Source: Promethearchaeota archaeon Loki_b32
GTDB lineage: Archaea > Asgardarchaeota > Lokiarchaeia > Sigyniarchaeales > SOKP01
Length of the DNA stretch: 64,000 bases
Assembly (NCBI GenBank): GCA_005223125.1
Contig: NJBH01000006.1
Span: forward strand, 46,316 to 110,315
Direction of reading: 5' to 3'
How positions within the stretch are numbered: position 1 is the stretch's first letter; each line of letters opens with the position of its first letter. This document shows positions 49,455-56,041 of this stretch, one piece after another. The notes below the pieces were generated by a model. That model saw only the letters and a program-made list of their open reading frames with translations, did no database searches and was not told the DNA's origin. Made by a program: the position numbers and the translations under genes.

Positions 49455-49877
49455 ATGAGTTTTGATGAAGAGGAAGAGTTTGACGAGGAATTCGACGAAG
49501 AAGATCTCGATGAAGAGTTAGATGAGCAGGATGAAGAAGAATTTGAGGATGAATTAGAAGAACCTTCTATAGTAGCATCTACTGAAGAGCCTGAATCTAA
49601 AACTCCAGCAACTAAAGTAATAGCTGAAGGGAAAAAAATTTCAGTCTATTTTATGTCAACTATAGGTCCCGGTGAAAAAAAACAAAAACTAGTTATAAAT
49701 ACAGGATATAGTGTTGGAGATATTAAGGAAACAGTAGCAAATTTATTTGGATTAGATCCTGCTGATTTTCATTTATCATCAAGTGGAATTACAATGGATG
49801 AGAGCTCATCTTTAAGAGATTATAATATAAGTGATGGAGACGATATACTTCTAATTCCCGCTAGTACAGCGGGCTAA
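49455..49877 (+). CDS. ubiquitin-like beta-grasp protein with acidic N-terminal extension, C-terminus ...IPASTAG-stop
   Basis: C-terminal ~80 aa collinear with 51741..52076; terminal Gly directly precedes the stop; D/E-rich first ~45 aa. Confidence 0.75.
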   Translation: MSFDEEEEFDEEFDEEDLDEELDEQDEEEFEDELEEPSIVASTEEPESKTPATKVIAEGKKISVYFMSTIGPGEKKQKLVINTGYSVGDIKETVANLFGLDPADFHLSSSGITMDESSSLRDYNISDGDDILLIPASTAG

Positions 49878-49927: not shown

Positions 49928-50716
49928 TTATTTTTTTTTTAAGGGAATCAGCGCAATTTCATCATCATCATCAATTTTATAATCTTTAATTTGTGAGTTT
50001 TCATTTAATAATATCCCCCCAGAAGAGAGAAGAAAGTCTTCTAAATTATAATCAAATAATCTCCCAATTCTCTCTTTAATTGGCTTTATTATCTCAGTTG
50101 TATCGAGTATAATTATCTTTGTTTTCTCGCCTGGTTCAAGTAAAGATCTTACATAAACACGGATCCGGTCTTCCATTTCAATCAGTTTCATAGGTTGTGT
50201 ATAAAATACCTCCTCATCAGTGTTATCTCTGGTCTTCAACATATTTTCGATTAACGTTTTTCTCTCATTTTCATCGAAATATAACATTTCCCGGATAAAC
50301 AAGATTTTGTCCACTTTTGATAAATCTAATAGGTTTATTTTATCTAATTCTTCTTGACTAAAAACTGAAAAGATATATTTATCGATTATTGGTATATCCT
50401 TATAGGACTCGCTGGATTCAGTATAATCTTCTATTAAAGGTATGGCATCAATGTAATCTTCAATGATATCAACTTGTTTCCGTTTAATTAATTTTGAATC
50501 AGGTAAGATTTTTTTTTTCTTTATTTTTTCATCCCAACTACCTTTAGACTGTATAACTGTATATACTGTACTAGTAGATAAGATCGCAACGCTACCTACT
50601 GTTAGAATGAGAAATAAGAAGGAATTTTCTATACTGAATAAGAAAAATAGGAAATAGACCAAAATACAAACAGTATAAAGAGCGATGACACTTAAAATTC
50701 TATATTTATTTCTCAT
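49928..50716 (-). CDS. membrane-anchored protein with C-terminal ubiquitin-like domain (no terminal Gly)
   Basis: Two N-terminal TM helices. The C-terminal segment IKERIGRLFDYNLEDFLLSSGGILLNENSQIKDYKIDDDDEIALIP aligns with the free Ubls (LF..DF.LSSGGI..EN...DY..D.D.I.LIP) but ends LKKK. Confidence 0.6.
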   Translation of the reverse strand: MRNKYRILSVIALYTVCILVYFLFFLFSIENSFLFLILTVGSVAILSTSTVYTVIQSKGSWDEKIKKKKILPDSKLIKRKQVDIIEDYIDAIPLIEDYTESSESYKDIPIIDKYIFSVFSQEELDKINLLDLSKVDKILFIREMLYFDENERKTLIENMLKTRDNTDEEVFYTQPMKLIEMEDRIRVYVRSLLEPGEKTKIIILDTTEIIKPIKERIGRLFDYNLEDFLLSSGGILLNENSQIKDYKIDDDDEIALIPLKKK

Positions 50717-50795: not shown

Positions 50796-51473
50796 TTAAT
50801 GTGACACACCCTGAATTGATTTTCTAACTTTAGAATAGTTTTTTGTATCTAATTGGAATACAATACGATTTTTAATTTTTTCAATTTTTATTAATTTCAA
50901 ATCTGTTAAAATGTCTATGTATTTTTTGATGGTACTATGATTCTTTTTCAAGCTGTTTGCAATTTCTGTAATTTTTAATGTTTTATTTTCTTTTTTCATA
51001 AAGTTAATTATTTTTTGGACAATTTTCTTTTTTAAATAATAATACAACTCGTCAAGTTCTGGATTTGAATCAAATTTAAAGAAGATTCTATGATTGTTAA
51101 TTTGTTTTGATCTTACAAATAGGAATTTTTCTAAACATGATAAATGCCATAAAGCTTGATTACTTCCCATATTTAGAGCTCTCATTATCTCATTAATATT
51201 AGAAGGATTCTTTTTTATATAGTTATAAATCTCATTTCGTTTTGGATGTTCAATAATATTATTTTTCATTAATCTTGTTCCTGGGATAATAACACGTTTT
51301 TTTATTAAATCTTTTAAAATTAATTCAATTCTATTCTCATTTATATTTGGATTATATCTAACTCTATTATTTATATACGATATGATTTCTTTGATTGAAA
51401 AGAACGTTTTTTTTGTTAAATACTCTTTTACTAATTCAAGAACGACAGATTTTGCATTATCCAGAGAACTCAT
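50796..51473 (-). CDS. tandem winged-helix protein (ArsR-like wHTH x2)
   Basis: KRNEIYNYIKKNPSNINEIMRALNMGSNQALWHLSCLEKFLFV and LKITEIANSLKKNHSTIKKYIDILTDLKLI. Confidence 0.55.
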   Translation of the reverse strand: MSSLDNAKSVVLELVKEYLTKKTFFSIKEIISYINNRVRYNPNINENRIELILKDLIKKRVIIPGTRLMKNNIIEHPKRNEIYNYIKKNPSNINEIMRALNMGSNQALWHLSCLEKFLFVRSKQINNHRIFFKFDSNPELDELYYYLKKKIVQKIINFMKKENKTLKITEIANSLKKNHSTIKKYIDILTDLKLIKIEKIKNRIVFQLDTKNYSKVRKSIQGVSH

Positions 51474-51740
51474 GAGCCTATACTTGTATTATGTTGATTT
51501 TTCTTGTTAAGTAATTATATATTCTCTCTAAAACAACATTTTTTGATTAATATATATTAATAGGCATTCATACAATTTATAATATAATTTCTAAAGAATC
51601 CTAATTTGCTCCTTCTCTTATTTTTGATAAAACCATTAAAAACTTCAAAATCATTCCAAAGGGTTTTATTATATCTTTTTAATGCGATTTTATTAAGTTT
51701 ACAAAAATAAAAAAATAAAAAAAAAAAGGATGTGTAATAA

Positions 51741-52076
51741 ATGAGTTTTGAAAATGAATTTGATGAGGATTTAGTTGGGAAGGAGCCTGTAAAATCTAAA
51801 ACTCCCGCATCTAAAACCCCTTCAACAGGAAAGAAATTGACTTTGTATTTCATGTCTACTATTGGACCCGGTGAAAAGAAGGAAAAATTAACAGTAAATA
51901 ACAATAATCGTGTGAGTGATATTAAACAAACACTTGGAAATTTATTTGGACTTAATCCAAACGATTTTCATTTATCATCTGGAGGTATTACAATGGATGA
52001 AAATAGCTACTTAAACGATTATAGTGTAAGTGATGGCGATGATATTCTTTTGATCCCTGCGAGTACTGCGGGGTAA
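51741..52076 (+). CDS. ubiquitin-like beta-grasp protein, C-terminus ...IPASTAG-stop
   Basis: Paralog of 49455..49877; first gene of the Ubl-E1-E2-JAMM-RING string. Confidence 0.8.
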   Translation: MSFENEFDEDLVGKEPVKSKTPASKTPSTGKKLTLYFMSTIGPGEKKEKLTVNNNNRVSDIKQTLGNLFGLNPNDFHLSSGGITMDENSYLNDYSVSDGDDILLIPASTAG

Positions 52077-52108
52077 ACTTATATAATTTTCTTCATAAAC
52101 TATAATAT

Positions 52109-52140
52109 AAGGGCGCTAAGCCCTTTAATTTTTTTTATTT
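52109..52140 (+). terminator. 6-bp GC-cored hairpin (AAGGGC-gctaa-GCCCTT) followed by a T-rich tract
   Basis: Read directly from the sequence, 33 nt after the Ubl stop and ahead of the E1 gene. Confidence 0.4.
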
Positions 52141-52155
52141 TTTTAATAATTATAA

Positions 52156-53391
52156 TTGGTGATTATATTGGGAAAGAGTTCAGATTTTTTTAGTAGAGGC
52201 CTGACATCGGAAGAGAGAAATTTATACGACCGCCAATTTAGGCTTGAGGGATGGTCTCAGAAACTAGTAAAAAACACTCGAGTTTTGATAGTTGGAGTTG
52301 GGGGATTAGGTTGCGAAATCGCAAAAAATCTGGCAATGTTAGGAATAGGACATTTAGATTTAGTAGATTTAGATATTATTGAACATTCAAACTTAAATCG
52401 CCAAATTTTATTTACGGGTGCTAAATTGGGGGAACCTAAAGCAATCGTGGCGGCAAAAAAATTAACTGAAATAAATCCAAATATTAATGTAAATGGTTAT
52501 CATACTTCCTTAGAGCGCCTAGATCCTGCAATATATAGAGCTGCTGACGTTATTATTGGAGGTCTTGACTCCATGAACGCTCGATTGAATTTAAACGCTC
52601 AATGTGTAAGATTTAGGAAACCACTAGTAGATGGAGGTGTGTCAGGTTATCATGGTCATGTCTACACGATTTTTCCATTCAAAAATGCATGTTATGAATG
52701 TAACCCGCTCCCTATAGCTGAAAGTGATGAGATGGCTGCATGTACTGTAGTAGGAATACCAAGAAAGAGGATTCACTGCATTTTTAAAGGAGATATGGCC
52801 TTTAAAGAAAAATTCGATAGGGATCCTAATCCAAAAAGTGTTGTTGATATTAAATTCATTCAAAAAGTTGCTAATGAATTAGTAAATAAACATAATTTTC
52901 TCCCGGAATATACTCAAGATGATATTGTAAAGATTATCGATAGACATGATCCAGGAATAATTACCATAAATGCTGTCATTTCAGCATTACAATCTCATGA
53001 AGCTATAAAAATCCTTCATTGGAAAAAAGGACATATAGGTTTAGGTGAACCAATAAAAACCTATGTTATTTTCAATGCAATGACAATGATGTTTTATCAT
53101 ATTGAAAAAAAAAGAAATCCAGAATGTTCCCAATGTGGAAAAAAAGTTCGAAGATTTGTCGTGAAATTAAGAGCACGTTCTCCATGTATTAATATAATCA
53201 AAGTATTAGAAAAACATGGTTTTAAGTTAGATCCTGATCTCGAACCCGTAATAACATTATTGGATTTTAATGATATTAAGATGATTGATCTAGAACAGAA
53301 TCCAATTGAAAATGGTTTAAGAAATTACGAATTTATGACTGCTGCAGGGTTTAAAGATGGAGAAATTTTTGTAACCTTAAAATTAAAATAA
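52156..53391 (+). CDS. ubiquitin-activating E1-like enzyme (ThiF/MoeB/Uba family); non-AUG start
   Basis: YDRQ..., VGVGGLGCEIAKNLAMLGIG, DLDIIEHSNLNRQ, Zn pairs CYEC / CSQC, candidate catalytic Cys in MAACTVVG. No in-frame ATG precedes the nucleotide loop (TTG 52156, GTG 52159 or TTG 52168). Confidence 0.85.
   Translation: MVIILGKSSDFFSRGLTSEERNLYDRQFRLEGWSQKLVKNTRVLIVGVGGLGCEIAKNLAMLGIGHLDLVDLDIIEHSNLNRQILFTGAKLGEPKAIVAAKKLTEINPNINVNGYHTSLERLDPAIYRAADVIIGGLDSMNARLNLNAQCVRFRKPLVDGGVSGYHGHVYTIFPFKNACYECNPLPIAESDEMAACTVVGIPRKRIHCIFKGDMAFKEKFDRDPNPKSVVDIKFIQKVANELVNKHNFLPEYTQDDIVKIIDRHDPGIITINAVISALQSHEAIKILHWKKGHIGLGEPIKTYVIFNAMTMMFYHIEKKRNPECSQCGKKVRRFVVKLRARSPCINIIKVLEKHGFKLDPDLEPVITLLDFNDIKMIDLEQNPIENGLRNYEFMTAAGFKDGEIFVTLKLK
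52158..52163 (+). promoter_or_regulatory. GGTGAT Shine-Dalgarno-like element at the E1 start region
   Basis: ataattGGTGATtataTTG; it overlaps the first two candidate starts and lies 4 nt before the TTG at 52168. Confidence 0.35.
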
Positions 53392-53473
53392 AAAATTAAT
53401 CTAAAAATGTTTTAAATAAAAAAGATTAATTGAAAAAAAATATTAATTATAATAAAAAAAAAGGGTTGAGAAT

Positions 53474-54001
53474 ATGAGTATAAGAAGTAGTAGAATCTCG
53501 CAAGATTTTGCGGGATTAAAAAAATTGTATAAACAAGGAACTATTATTCAGTTAAAACCATTTAATCCAAAAAGAAAGAGTATTGATCATTTAGCAATTA
53601 CTATTAAAGGACCTAAAGGTACTGTTTATGCAGGTGGTCTTTTTAAATTAGAAATGAAATTCCCTGCTCAGTATCCTAGACAACCACCTTTTGTAAGACT
53701 GCATACTCCAATCTGGCATCCAAATTTTTGGGCAAAACCAAGTGAATATAAAGGACAAAGAAATATTTGTTTAGCATTAGTAGATCCCTCCCTAACTGGT
53801 AAAAGAGGAGGGTGGAGTCCATCAAAAACAGCGGTTACCGTTGTTCAAGCAATAATTGCTATGTTAAACACACGAGGTAAATATGTAAATCCTACCGATG
53901 TTTTTAATAAAAAAGCTGCGATAGAGATGATGAAAAATCAGAAGTTTTTTGAGAAAAAAGTGAAGAATCTCGTGAAAAAGTATGCAAATAAAAAATGGTG
54001 A
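53474..54001 (+). CDS. ubiquitin-conjugating E2 (UBC fold)
   Basis: IKGPKGTVYAGGLFKLEMKFPAQYPRQPPFVRLHTPIWHPNF (HPN), catalytic Cys in GQRNICLAL, WSP, conserved C-terminal helices. Confidence 0.9.
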   Translation: MSIRSSRISQDFAGLKKLYKQGTIIQLKPFNPKRKSIDHLAITIKGPKGTVYAGGLFKLEMKFPAQYPRQPPFVRLHTPIWHPNFWAKPSEYKGQRNICLALVDPSLTGKRGGWSPSKTAVTVVQAIIAMLNTRGKYVNPTDVFNKKAAIEMMKNQKFFEKKVKNLVKKYANKKW

Positions 54002-54002
54002 T
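53997..54002 (+). promoter_or_regulatory. GGTGAT Shine-Dalgarno-like element embedded in the E2 stop region, 7 nt before the JAMM ATG
   Basis: aaaaaTGGTGAttactttaATG; the TGA of E2 is inside the element. Confidence 0.5.
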
Positions 54003-54009
54003 TACTTTA

Positions 54010-54822
54010 ATGGAGAATAAAGAATTAGCCAATAGTTCAATCAAAGACGTAATTAAAAAGAAGATAAAAGAAAAAATAAAACAAGAATTACTAGATGAAA
54101 TATGTGAAGAACTTAAATTAGAGGAAGAAGAATTAACAGAAGAGATTTGTTCAATGCTTACTAAAAAAACCTCTGCCAAACCAATAATAAAACTTTCTAA
54201 GATACCTACCGTCAAAATAGAAGAGAAAAAGCATGTTGAAATACAAATAGAAGAGGAAATACAAAAAGAAGTTTATATTTCAGTAAAAAGTATACTTAAA
54301 ATAGCAAGTCATGCGCTTAAATATGCAAATTCTAAGATTCGAAGAGAGAATTGGGTGGAAGTTATTGGGCTTCTAGCAGGAAAATTAGATAAAAACGAAA
54401 TACTCCATATTGAAGATGCTTACCCAATGGGGCATGGAACGGCTGTATATGCCGAAATTAAAGATTATAAGAATTATGTGAGGGCATTTAAAGATATTAA
54501 AAAACAGAGATTATTTATATGTGGATGGTATCATAGTCATCCTTCATATGGTCTTTTTATGAGTAATGAAGATATGGGCACTCAAGCAAGATATCAAACA
54601 CTTTGGGATAAAGCAGTTGCTCTTGTTGTTGATCCATACCTAATTGACGGTACTTCACCAGGCTTTGAGATTTATAGCGCTAATTTGAAATCAAAAACAT
54701 GGTATCCATTATTATACGGGATTAAAGGGTCATTAGATGTAAGAATGTTACCTGAAATATTGAAATTTATGCATCCCCTCATTGAAGGAAAGCCAGTATA
54801 TCTTGAATATGATGAAGATTAA
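54010..54822 (+). CDS. JAB1/MPN/Mov34 (JAMM) metalloprotease, Rpn11/CSN5-like deubiquitinase with charged N-terminal extension
   Basis: EVIGLLAG (Glu), GWYHSHPSYGLFMSNED (HxHx7Sx2D). ATG 54010 is preferred because of the SD; the track start 53995 is in frame and also possible. Confidence 0.85.
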   Translation: MENKELANSSIKDVIKKKIKEKIKQELLDEICEELKLEEEELTEEICSMLTKKTSAKPIIKLSKIPTVKIEEKKHVEIQIEEEIQKEVYISVKSILKIASHALKYANSKIRRENWVEVIGLLAGKLDKNEILHIEDAYPMGHGTAVYAEIKDYKNYVRAFKDIKKQRLFICGWYHSHPSYGLFMSNEDMGTQARYQTLWDKAVALVVDPYLIDGTSPGFEIYSANLKSKTWYPLLYGIKGSLDVRMLPEILKFMHPLIEGKPVYLEYDED

Positions 54823-54850: not shown

Positions 54851-56041
54851 ATGGCAAAATTTAAATCGGTAGTAATTTTTCTAGCGATATTTTGCTTAAT
54901 TGGTATAATCCATGGTGCTCTTCTAAATTCAATTAATGTTTTTGTAACTTGGTTGTTAATTGGAATTTGGTTAATTTATTCTTTCAAAGTTCTAAAAAAT
55001 ATCAAACAATATCGTGAATTTAATTCTCCTCATAATACTGCTTTTTTTACCATTGGTCCTGTTTTAATGGGAATTTTTTATTCAGTGTGGAGTAATTTCA
55101 CAGGTTTATTAGGAGAAAATCTTTTAGAAAGTACAGATTTATATTTAAGTTGGTGGAGTATACTATTTGGATTTCCCTATATATTATATGGTTCGATTTC
55201 TTTATACCGTTGTTTTAAAAAGTATAATGTAATACATTTTAGAAGGAAATCAATAAAAGCACGCACATTTGGTTTTATTTTAGGAATCTCCATTCTCCTG
55301 TTTATAATTATATACTGGATAAGTTTTTATTCAATTATAGACTTTTATGAATCTTTAATAACACCTCTCCATTTTTTAATAGATCTCAATCTATTAATAT
55401 TACTTATCAGTACTATACTACTATTAATAGTCCCTGGCTTGTTTGGTGCTCAAACTCCATTACCTCAACTAACTAGAGATTACATAGCAAGACGTACAAG
55501 CAGATTAAACAATTTAACATCACCCACCCCTAATCGACAAAGACAAACTGTTCGTACTACAACTAGATCATCTCCAACACCTTCAACAAGAACAGTTGCT
55601 CGCACAACAAGATCAGTTTCTCGTTCTGCAAGATCAACGCCTACAACAAATAGATATTCTACAAGCTCTAGAGAAAAAAAAACTACTCAAACTGTAGGCA
55701 GAAGAGCAACAGGACCAGTGCGAAGAAAAAAAACTGTTACAAAAATAAGCAATTTCAATTTATATAAACCAAAAGCAGCACGTCTTTCAACAGAGGATTT
55801 TAAATGTATTTTTTGTTTTAAGTTACCAGAATATCCTAAAGATAATGGTAGAGGAATAATATTGTGTCCAAAATGTAAATACCCCGCTCATGCTGACGAA
55901 TTTAAAGATTGGCTTCAAAGTTCTAACCTATGTTCTCGGTGTAATACACCAATTCCCTCAAGCTTTAGAAGAAATCCTAAAACCATAAGTGTAAAAAATT
56001 ATATAATCGTCATTAAGCATTTTGTAAGTAATAGGAGATGA
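54851..56041 (+). CDS. polytopic membrane protein with R/S/T/P-rich linker and C-terminal RING-like zinc finger (candidate E3)
   Basis: ~6 TM helices; ~80-aa low-complexity basic linker; CIFC-x16-CPKC-x4-H-x13-CSRC. Confidence 0.65.
   Translation: MAKFKSVVIFLAIFCLIGIIHGALLNSINVFVTWLLIGIWLIYSFKVLKNIKQYREFNSPHNTAFFTIGPVLMGIFYSVWSNFTGLLGENLLESTDLYLSWWSILFGFPYILYGSISLYRCFKKYNVIHFRRKSIKARTFGFILGISILLFIIIYWISFYSIIDFYESLITPLHFLIDLNLLILLISTILLLIVPGLFGAQTPLPQLTRDYIARRTSRLNNLTSPTPNRQRQTVRTTTRSSPTPSTRTVARTTRSVSRSARSTPTTNRYSTSSREKKTTQTVGRRATGPVRRKKTVTKISNFNLYKPKAARLSTEDFKCIFCFKLPEYPKDNGRGIILCPKCKYPAHADEFKDWLQSSNLCSRCNTPIPSSFRRNPKTISVKNYIIVIKHFVSNRR

Follow-up and report, generated by a model that had tools for sequence, protein, structure and literature searches.

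A six-helix membrane protein with a C-terminal RING finger is a predicted E3 ligase of the Ubl-E1-E2-JAMM operon of Asgard archaea

We analysed a stretch of 64,000 nucleotides from the genome of Promethearchaeota archaeon Loki_b32 (assembly GCA_005223125.1, contig NJBH01000006.1, positions 46,316 to 110,315 of the forward strand; this whole stretch is called the window, and all coordinates refer to it), and in particular the gene at 54851..56041 on the plus strand. The list of open reading frames (ORFs) gives it an ATG start and 396 residues plus a stop codon. It begins 28 nucleotides past the end of a gene for a JAMM deubiquitinase, on the same strand as the genes for a ubiquitin-like protein (Ubl), an activating enzyme (E1), a conjugating enzyme (E2) and this JAMM protein; the ORFs and their Pfam matches confirm that it is the last gene of the string, as a first-pass annotation of the sequence had reported. 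The encoded protein, here called TM-RING, is laid out as a domain of six transmembrane (TM) helices, a lysine-poor basic linker and a C-terminal RING finger. We consider that it is probably an integral-membrane E3 ligase of the adjacent cascade.

The four genes ahead of TM-RING, all on the plus strand, encode recognisable pathway proteins. The operon Ubl (111 residues, 51741-52076) matches PF00240 with an E-value of 6e-6, is syntenic in related loci and ends in ...STAG, with the stop codon immediately after. The E1-like activating enzyme (52156-53391) matches ThiF at E 1.4e-61 and also the Ube1 and SAMP-E1 models. The E2 (53474-54001) matches UQ_con at E 3.6e-26 and carries an HPN motif and a catalytic Cys, and the JAMM/Rpn11-like deubiquitinase (53995-54822) matches JAB at E 1.5e-15 and carries the H-S-H...S..D motif; read from the sequence, the catalytic motifs of both proteins are intact. 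Besides TM-RING, which was the single match, a six-frame scan of the 64-kb window with a relaxed RING pattern found no other RING-like ORF. On the four related contigs for which called genes and Pfam matches were available, no called gene near the operon has a RING-family match.

The core of the finger extends from C319 to C364 (55805..55942, plus strand), as delimited by conservation and profiles. It reads C319-IF-C322, x16, C339-PK-C342, x4, H347, x13, C361-SR-C364, exactly as annotated in the first pass, and the pattern recurs with identical spacing in 119 of the 120 closest homologues; together with its single occurrence in the six-frame scan, this places it well beyond a chance match. It is followed by a conserved C-terminal tail (residues 365-396, 55943..56038, plus strand) in which the alignment shows the motif NPK.IS.K.Y and an amphipathic helix, placed by AlphaFold2 at residues 381-393.

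We compared this finger with known zinc domains by means of sequence profiles. Within the close family it is nearly invariant and too uniform to inform a profile, and neither phmmer nor the close-family profile found anything significant in the PDB (IFT144 at E 0.01). Against Pfam and NCBIfam the query alone gave only sub-threshold matches, among them one to AuxB over the low-complexity stretch that was discarded as an artefact. We searched 1.84 billion representative proteins exhaustively with a profile and obtained 116 representatives, of which about 100 are proteins of the same kind, the full-length ones with six TM helices, linker and finger; the others are soluble or differently anchored Asgard-type proteins with the same finger. 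Significance in the PDB arose once the distant members from this search joined the profile. A profile built from 27 diverse fingers of the membrane family matches RNF24 at E 3e-6, RNF4 at 3.5e-4, EL5 at 4.6e-4 and the HRD1 RING at 5e-3, with Arkadia/RNF165 also among the significant RING-H2 matches, whereas the ribosomal zinc ribbons eS27 and eL37 match it only at E>0.03. When the 27 fingers were scanned singly at E<=0.01, 19 matched Prok-RING_1 (best 3.7e-7), 15 zf-RING_2 (best 2.4e-7) and 10 zf-RING_16. Five of the eight soluble Asgard relatives scanned pass the Pfam cut-off of zf-RING_2, and their own profile matches RNF24 at 3e-10; hhalign joins the membrane-family fingers to these relatives with a probability of 99.4 and an E-value of 7e-22. 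The profile searches proposed with the first-pass annotation came out on the side of RING models, with RINGv absent from the families shown and the ribbon matches weaker and not significant.

The structural model agrees, at only moderate confidence. AlphaFold2 predicts the C-terminal 98 residues with a predicted local distance difference test score (pLDDT) of 70.6 and gives the RING layout of a beta-hairpin, a helix starting at ligand 5 and a final CxxC; counted from residue 299 of the protein as residue 1, the elements are strands at 38-40 and 47-49 and a helix at 50-59. Foldseek places the zinc domain of the IFT-A complex first and, after it, nearly all matches are RING or U-box domains of E3 ligases, including LubX, Ring1b/Bmi1, HRD1, Rad18, TRIM32, RNF4 and RNF38. 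Taken with the profiles, the finger is almost certainly a RING domain, and its sequence suggests an origin from RING-H2 and membership of the prokaryotic C4HC3 subtype.

The ligand set is unusual at one position. Only ten columns are invariant throughout the diverse family: D316, C319, C322, C339, C342, H347, E350, W354, C361 and C364. The codon of Glu350 (55898..55900, plus strand, from translation and alignment) encodes the residue at His+3, which is Glu in 215 of 216 family members, while the Asp349 at His+2 is variable. When the finger is aligned with RNF24 and EL5, H347 occupies the column of ligand 5 and Glu350 that of ligand 6, a Cys in both proteins, and the [ILF]-x2-W-L signature follows. 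The same column in 16 fingers of the soluble relatives holds His in 13 and Cys, Asp and Glu in one each, exactly the residue types capable of binding zinc. The first-pass annotation had correctly noted an acidic residue in place of a Cys after the His, of which Glu350 is the conserved one; its count of seven ligands probably falls one short, since Glu350 is nearly invariant and sits at ligand position 6. The single exception is a metagenome member of 418 residues with Ala at this position (HADAF), which may reflect a sequencing error or a degenerate copy.

The residues from C342 onwards are spaced as in RING-H2, C-x-[H4]-x2-H5-x2-[6]. At position 344, which corresponds to the canonical ligand 4, 158 of the 216 members have Tyr and 33 still have His, and the C4HC3 appearance of the finger results from the CPxC knuckle that begins at C339, three residues upstream of C342. 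According to a review, the C4HC3 configuration is typical of prokaryotic RING domains (PMC11354881). In our reading the finger would be binuclear, with C319, C322, H347 and E350 as putative site 1 and C339, C342, C361 and C364 as putative site 2; that Glu350 binds metal is suggested by its conservation.

Marks of E3 activity can be compared with an archaeal srfp E3 that was reconstituted biochemically, in which mutation of the Ile after Cys1, of the Trp after ligand 6 or of the Arg after the last Cys impairs activity; the small RING proteins of archaeal ubiquitin operons are active E3s (PMC5654768). In the TM-RING family a hydrophobic residue (F, I, V or L) occupies C1+2 (F321) in 214 of 216 members, and Trp occupies ligand 6+4 (W354) in all 216. 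An Arg stands one position before the last Cys in 205 of 216. Two of the four usual activity marks are present. By eye, loop 7 of the operon E2 (W-S-P-S) is canonical.

The membrane domain covers residues 1-200 (54851..55450, plus strand) and contains six TM helices according to AlphaFold2 and the positive-inside charges. With an alignment of 60 diverse family members as input, AlphaFold2 gave a mean pLDDT of 92.5 and a predicted TM-score (pTM) of 0.85, with helices at 2-25, 28-56, 64-80, 101-123, 137-165 and 179-198; hydropathy and charge likewise give six, in agreement with the approximate number first annotated. Counted from the N-terminus, the successive loops hold 2, 0, 4, 0, 8 and 0 Lys and Arg residues and are followed by the Arg-rich tail, and the acidic residues sit in the three loops that lack Lys and Arg. 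This pattern fits a topology with both termini in the cytoplasm, so that the finger is predicted to share the cytoplasmic side with the E1, E2 and JAMM proteins. The loop between TM4 and TM5, in which DSSP assigns a cytoplasmic beta-hairpin on the AlphaFold2 model (residues 127-136, 55229..55258, plus strand), is both the most basic and the best conserved loop (KY..Y...K...AR), with Y125 kept in 72%, K133 in 67% and R138 in 60% of the 60 diverse members. The best conserved positions of the domain as a whole are R55, N58, P60, Y125, K133 and R138 in cytoplasmic loops, and F66, P70, F106 and P109 in TM3-TM4.

The membrane domain matches no Pfam family and no PDB sequence, and the seven Foldseek matches to it in the PDB are not significant (best E 3.4, TM-score 0.23, below 0.25). 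Homology to Hrd1 or other membrane proteins was rejected in the absence of any Foldseek or hidden Markov model signal, Derlin and rhomboid not having been compared individually. The predicted fold is one that solved structures do not show. A profile of the TM part alone recovers, among its 120 best matches, only proteins of the same TM plus RING type and no other architecture. Selection of substrates is our preferred guess for the role of this domain.

Between membrane domain and finger lies a basic, disordered linker rich in Arg, Ser, Thr and Pro (residues 201-299, 55451..55747, plus strand, defined by composition). The low-complexity tract is present as first annotated, with the composition T 23, R 18, S 14, P 7, K 7; its length is about 94-100 residues rather than about 80. 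All distant members keep the composition and not the sequence. A count along the protein shows a stretch of 139 residues without a single Lys (residues 137-275, 55259..55675, plus strand), which takes in TM5, TM6 and most of the linker and whose cytoplasmic part (residues 199-275) has 15 Arg. The linkers of 180 members have a K/(K+R) ratio of 0.22, compared with 0.60 in the remainder of the same proteins and, in this Lys-rich genome, 0.70 in the window's long ORFs. At the ratio of this AT-rich window, the probability of 15 Arg and no Lys is near 1e-8 by our own arithmetic. A tether free of Lys would be expected if self-modification had been selected against.

We next consider how widely the protein and its operon are conserved. 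A search for homologues of TM-RING gave 396 at E<=0.01, and the statements on identity and names cover the best 120 of these. They are 57-97% identical and nearly all full-length; those that bear a source name are all called 'hypothetical protein', come from Asgard metagenome-assembled genomes (MAGs) and have no precomputed Pfam domain. Among distant full-length members, identity in the membrane part falls to 10-20%. The labels of the family span Lokiarchaeal/Promethearchaeal, Thor-, Hermod-, Odin-, Hod- and Helarchaeal lineages. As a side observation, the E2 is the best conserved protein of the operon, with 82-97% identity across species, compared with 51-77% for TM-RING.

When one genome of each GTDB species was scanned for the pattern, 137 stretches proved to encode a relative, and the best 80 of these were examined by tblastn. 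Wherever the contig reaches, these 80 loci have the order Ubl, E1, E2, JAMM, TM-RING on one strand, a convergent GTP-cyclohydrolase gene 3' of the operon and usually three more conserved genes 5' of it, namely a second Ubl, a membrane-anchored Ubl-domain protein and a helix-turn-helix (HTH) regulator. A complete Promethearchaeota chromosome has the same Ubl-E1-E2-JAMM-TM-RING order, as do three loci of far lower sequence identity, one each from Hodarchaeales, Helarchaeota and a further MAG; a short contig carries E2, JAMM and TM-RING in order. Metatranscriptome assemblies from four runs (X25-X28) of two studies contain contigs that are 93-99% similar to parts of Ubl, E1, E2, JAMM and TM-RING. 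They map to 54959-55885 and 51700-54340 of the window, and the highest word depth is at the region of the Ubl start. For expression of the operon in close relatives, such sequence matches are supportive but weak evidence.

Based on these results, we propose the following mechanism. The six-helix domain would anchor the protein with both termini in the cytoplasm, and the flexible, basic, Lys-depleted linker of about 100 residues would tether the C-terminal RING. The RING would dock the thioester of the operon E2 with Ubl through F321 and the invariant Trp354 and promote transfer of the Ubl onto lysines of proteins at or in the membrane, which the membrane domain and its conserved cytoplasmic loops may select or position. 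With its lysine desert, the tether would escape modification by the ligase itself, and the JAMM enzyme would reverse the mark. E3 activity itself is predicted here from sequence features and genomic context.

Several points weigh against an E3 ligase. The query sequence alone passes no Pfam RING cut-off; zf_UBZ, zf-RING_16 and Zn_ribbon_15 (E 0.14) appear below threshold, all at E-values of about 0.1. In the AlphaFold2 model the first Cys-x2-Cys knuckle stays below a pLDDT of 50, and the Foldseek E-values of the finger all exceed 0.01 (0.015 to 0.7), which we attribute to the small size of the domain. Such sub-threshold matches, Zn_ribbon_15 included, and the ribbon-like paired Cys-x2-Cys knuckle sites would also suit one or two plain zinc ribbons with no kinship to RING and no E2-binding surface. 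This is highly improbable given that family profiles match RING-H2 fingers at E 3e-6 to 5e-3 and ribosomal ribbons only above 0.03, that most members match Pfam RING models, that the kinship to soluble zf-RING_2 proteins reaches 7e-22, that the His-x2-Glu-[F]-x2-Trp-Leu helix is specific to RING domains, and that Foldseek returns RING and U-box domains. The other adverse points concern function. None of the 216 members has Lys or Arg directly behind the last Cys, where N, D, S, G, E, A, T or L is found instead. The canonical linchpin, which activates the E2-Ub thioester, is therefore missing, and among the features of the protein itself this speaks most strongly against a canonical mechanism. 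After Cys7 only 13 of the 216 have Pro, while 196 have Ser and 7 have Ala. By eye, the operon E2 has Arg at the position of the RING-contacting Phe62 of UbcH5 (YPRQPP versus YPFKPP), and its interface with the RING may therefore be atypical. There is no known substrate, we know of no E3 activity for the IFT144/WDR19 zinc domain that is the closest relative in the PDB, and the RNA evidence consists of assembled contigs from relatives that are 93-99% similar and could be of DNA origin.

The missing linchpin, the IFT144/WDR19 domain as best PDB relative by both sequence and fold, and the weak signal of the ubiquitin-binding zf_UBZ finger at residues 359-371 would all be compatible with a non-catalytic anchor or scaffold, in which the finger binds E2, Ubl or JAMM and recruits the cascade to the membrane (cf. 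Cue1-Ubc7), or serves as a structural RING as in coat and IFT proteins. We judge this unlikely. Conservation is strict at the two E2-contact positions, the hydrophobic C1+2 and the Trp at ligand 6+4; the operon offers no further E3 candidate, and the UBZ match spans only 13 residues. Many active RING E3s do without a linchpin; its loss therefore lowers the chance of activity and leaves it possible. Less probable still is that the membrane domain is the main actor, as a channel, transporter, receptor or enzyme, with the RING tail regulating it and the protein being chiefly a Ubl target or sensor, or being regulated by self-modification, rather than a general ligase. The domain is well conserved, has a confidently predicted fold, carries conserved residues on both faces (R55, N58, P60, F66, P109, Y125, K133) and never occurs without the RING among its 120 best matches; yet no similarity to a transporter, channel or enzyme family was found, the lysine desert speaks against self-modification of the tether, and strict linkage to E1, E2 and a deubiquitinase is what one expects of a pathway component. 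The predicted E3 ligase remains the reading that we prefer.

The archaeal RING E3s described in the literature searched are small and soluble (PMC5654768; bioRxiv 10.1101/2023.07.25.550441), as the first-pass annotation stated, and our literature search found neither an archaeal membrane RING E3 nor a description of the TM-RING family, the 2011 survey of prokaryotic RINGs (Burroughs/Iyer/Aravind) and the asCOG tables being outside its reach. The srfp/RING proteins of Caldiarchaeum subterraneum (PMC5654768) and of a Helarchaeial genome (bioRxiv 10.1101/2023.07.25.550441) likewise have a RING-H2-type finger and lie beside Ub, E1, E2 and Rpn11/JAMM. In the Caldiarchaeum srfp, I30 and W58 are needed for activity, and their equivalents are conserved in the TM-RING family. 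Proteins of the srfp type are small, soluble and C3H2C3, with a linchpin Arg (R69), whereas TM-RING has 396 residues, six TM helices, a long linker and no linchpin; its ligand 4 has moved to the CPxC knuckle and its ligand 6 is Glu. By context, TM-RING occupies the slot of the small RING protein in the Caldiarchaeum operon and is the counterpart of the soluble srfp E3s.

Among finger families, Prok-RING_1 (PF14446), the prokaryotic C4HC3 type, has the same order C-x2-C...C-x2-C-x4-H-x2-X...C-x2-C as TM-RING, although the query lies below the cut-off of this model and has Glu in place of the sixth ligand. The best direct finger matches are the eukaryotic RING-H2 proteins RNF24 and the ATL-type EL5, with which it has the H-x2-C/E-[ILF]-x2-W-L helix in common. 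Both have canonical C3H2C3 ligands, and their other regions are unrelated to TM-RING. RNF24 and ATL-type ligases have a single N-terminal TM anchor.

The membrane E3s of the MARCH/Doa10 group, with their RING-CH finger, also have the ligand order C4-H-C3. The first-pass annotation had placed the finger closest to this C4HC3 variant, and the ligand order stands; the resemblance is one of pattern only. The consensus spacing of RING-CH is C-x-C-x(4-7)-H-x2-C, as opposed to C-x2-C-x4-H-x2-E in TM-RING, and the RING is usually N-terminal in MARCH/Doa10 and C-terminal here. RINGv is absent from the families matched by the query at E<=1 and from the 25 of 32 families shown at E<=0.01 for the 27 members. 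Because of the missing RINGv match and the different spacing, we rejected an affiliation with RING-CH; the matches are to RING-H2, Prok-RING_1 and zf-RING_2 instead. What remains of the original membrane E3 proposal is a polytopic protein in the E3 slot of the operon with a finger of the RING superfamily, cytoplasmic by predicted topology, and without the RING-CH label.

Hrd1/synoviolin and gp78/AMFR resemble TM-RING in their general architecture, with a multi-spanning domain ahead of a cytosolic RING-H2-type finger and of disordered segments, and the 27-finger profile matches AMFR weakly. Hrd1 has eight TM helices with the RING close after the last one, whereas TM-RING has six and a linker of about 100 residues in between. 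There is no detectable similarity between the membrane domains: the Hrd1 chains 5v6p, 6vjz and 8kes occur in the PDB sequence searches and are absent from the seven Foldseek matches. The membrane domains being unrelated as far as detectable, we do not file TM-RING in the Hrd1/gp78 family, and common descent of the whole protein with Hrd1/gp78 is not supported.

The C-terminal zinc domain of IFT144/WDR19 shares the signature CPxC-x-[FY]-PA...C-x2-C with TM-RING (nucleotides 55865-55942). By sequence it ranks first or nearly first in the PDB (8bda_I, 8bbf_A, 9a2d_F; E 8e-4 to 0.014), with 6.7e-6 reached from the soluble relatives, and by fold it ranks first (9a2d_F, E 0.015, root-mean-square deviation 2.3 A). 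IFT144 has lost the His (Ser/Leu), and in place of the Glu one sequence has Gln whereas WDR19 retains Glu; the domain is part of a large soluble coat-like protein (IFT-A). The soluble relatives also match the RINGs of the GATOR2 proteins WDR24/WDR59. These sequence matches hint that the C-terminal RINGs of coat proteins and the Asgard TM-RING subtype may be close.

To our knowledge, ubiquitylation at membranes, including endoplasmic reticulum-associated degradation (ERAD), endocytic sorting and ESCRT sorting, is seen as a feature of eukaryotes. Ubiquitin binding has been demonstrated for Asgard ESCRT proteins. If TM-RING is an E3, ubiquitin tagging would have taken place at membranes before the origin of eukaryotes, and the protein is a testable candidate enzyme for marking membrane proteins, hard-wired in the main Ubl-E1-E2-JAMM operon. 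We can further imagine, as a tentative possibility, an Asgard module for membrane-protein ubiquitylation that predates eukaryotic endomembranes: the six-TM domain would recognise or extract membrane or secreted proteins, the RING would mark them, and they would be handed over to ESCRT, Cdc48 or the proteasome, possibly aided by the neighbouring membrane-anchored Ubl-domain protein. Such a module, if true, would be a functional forerunner of ERAD-type and endocytic-sorting E3s with a membrane domain that is not homologous to that of Hrd1. What appears to be new is a membrane-integrated form of RING with a putative Glu ligand and a lysine desert, conserved across Asgard lineages; the family offers a natural Cys-to-Glu variant of a RING ligand and a very clear prokaryotic lysine desert, and its membrane domain, for which no structural relative was found, is a target for structure determination. 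As members of the group that carries the family have been cultured, the prediction can be tested in vivo.

Further observations concern the labels of two family members and the genes upstream of the operon. The complete Asgard operon, from Ubl through E1, E2 and JAMM to TM-RING, is also present at 54-89% protein identity on contig DATKTW010000176.1, which bears the label 'Candidatus Nanopelagicaceae bacterium' and is probably a mis-binned Asgard contig; mis-binning is likewise suspected for RMG30731.1, a family member labelled Euryarchaeota/Methanobacteriota. The window encodes two conjugatable Ubls on the plus strand, at 49455-49877 and 51741-52076, both of which end in ...PASTAG followed by the stop codon, with Ala-Gly in place of Gly-Gly and without a propeptide. 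The upstream one has a strongly acidic N-terminal extension of about 65 residues, and the operon Ubl has an extension of about 35 residues rich in Lys, Pro, Ser and Thr. The membrane-anchored Ubl-domain protein (49928-50716, minus strand) shows synteny with the operon in the majority of the 80 species loci and ends in ...IPLKKK; lacking a terminal Gly, it is not conjugatable. A membrane-anchored Ubl-domain protein near a membrane RING may resemble adaptors of the Herp/Usa1 type. Finally, the gene at 50796-51473 (minus strand), which lies beside the operon in most loci, encodes a double winged-helix protein with an ArsR-type HTH_5 match (E 3e-8) and a second winged helix-turn-helix, and is a candidate regulator of the operon.

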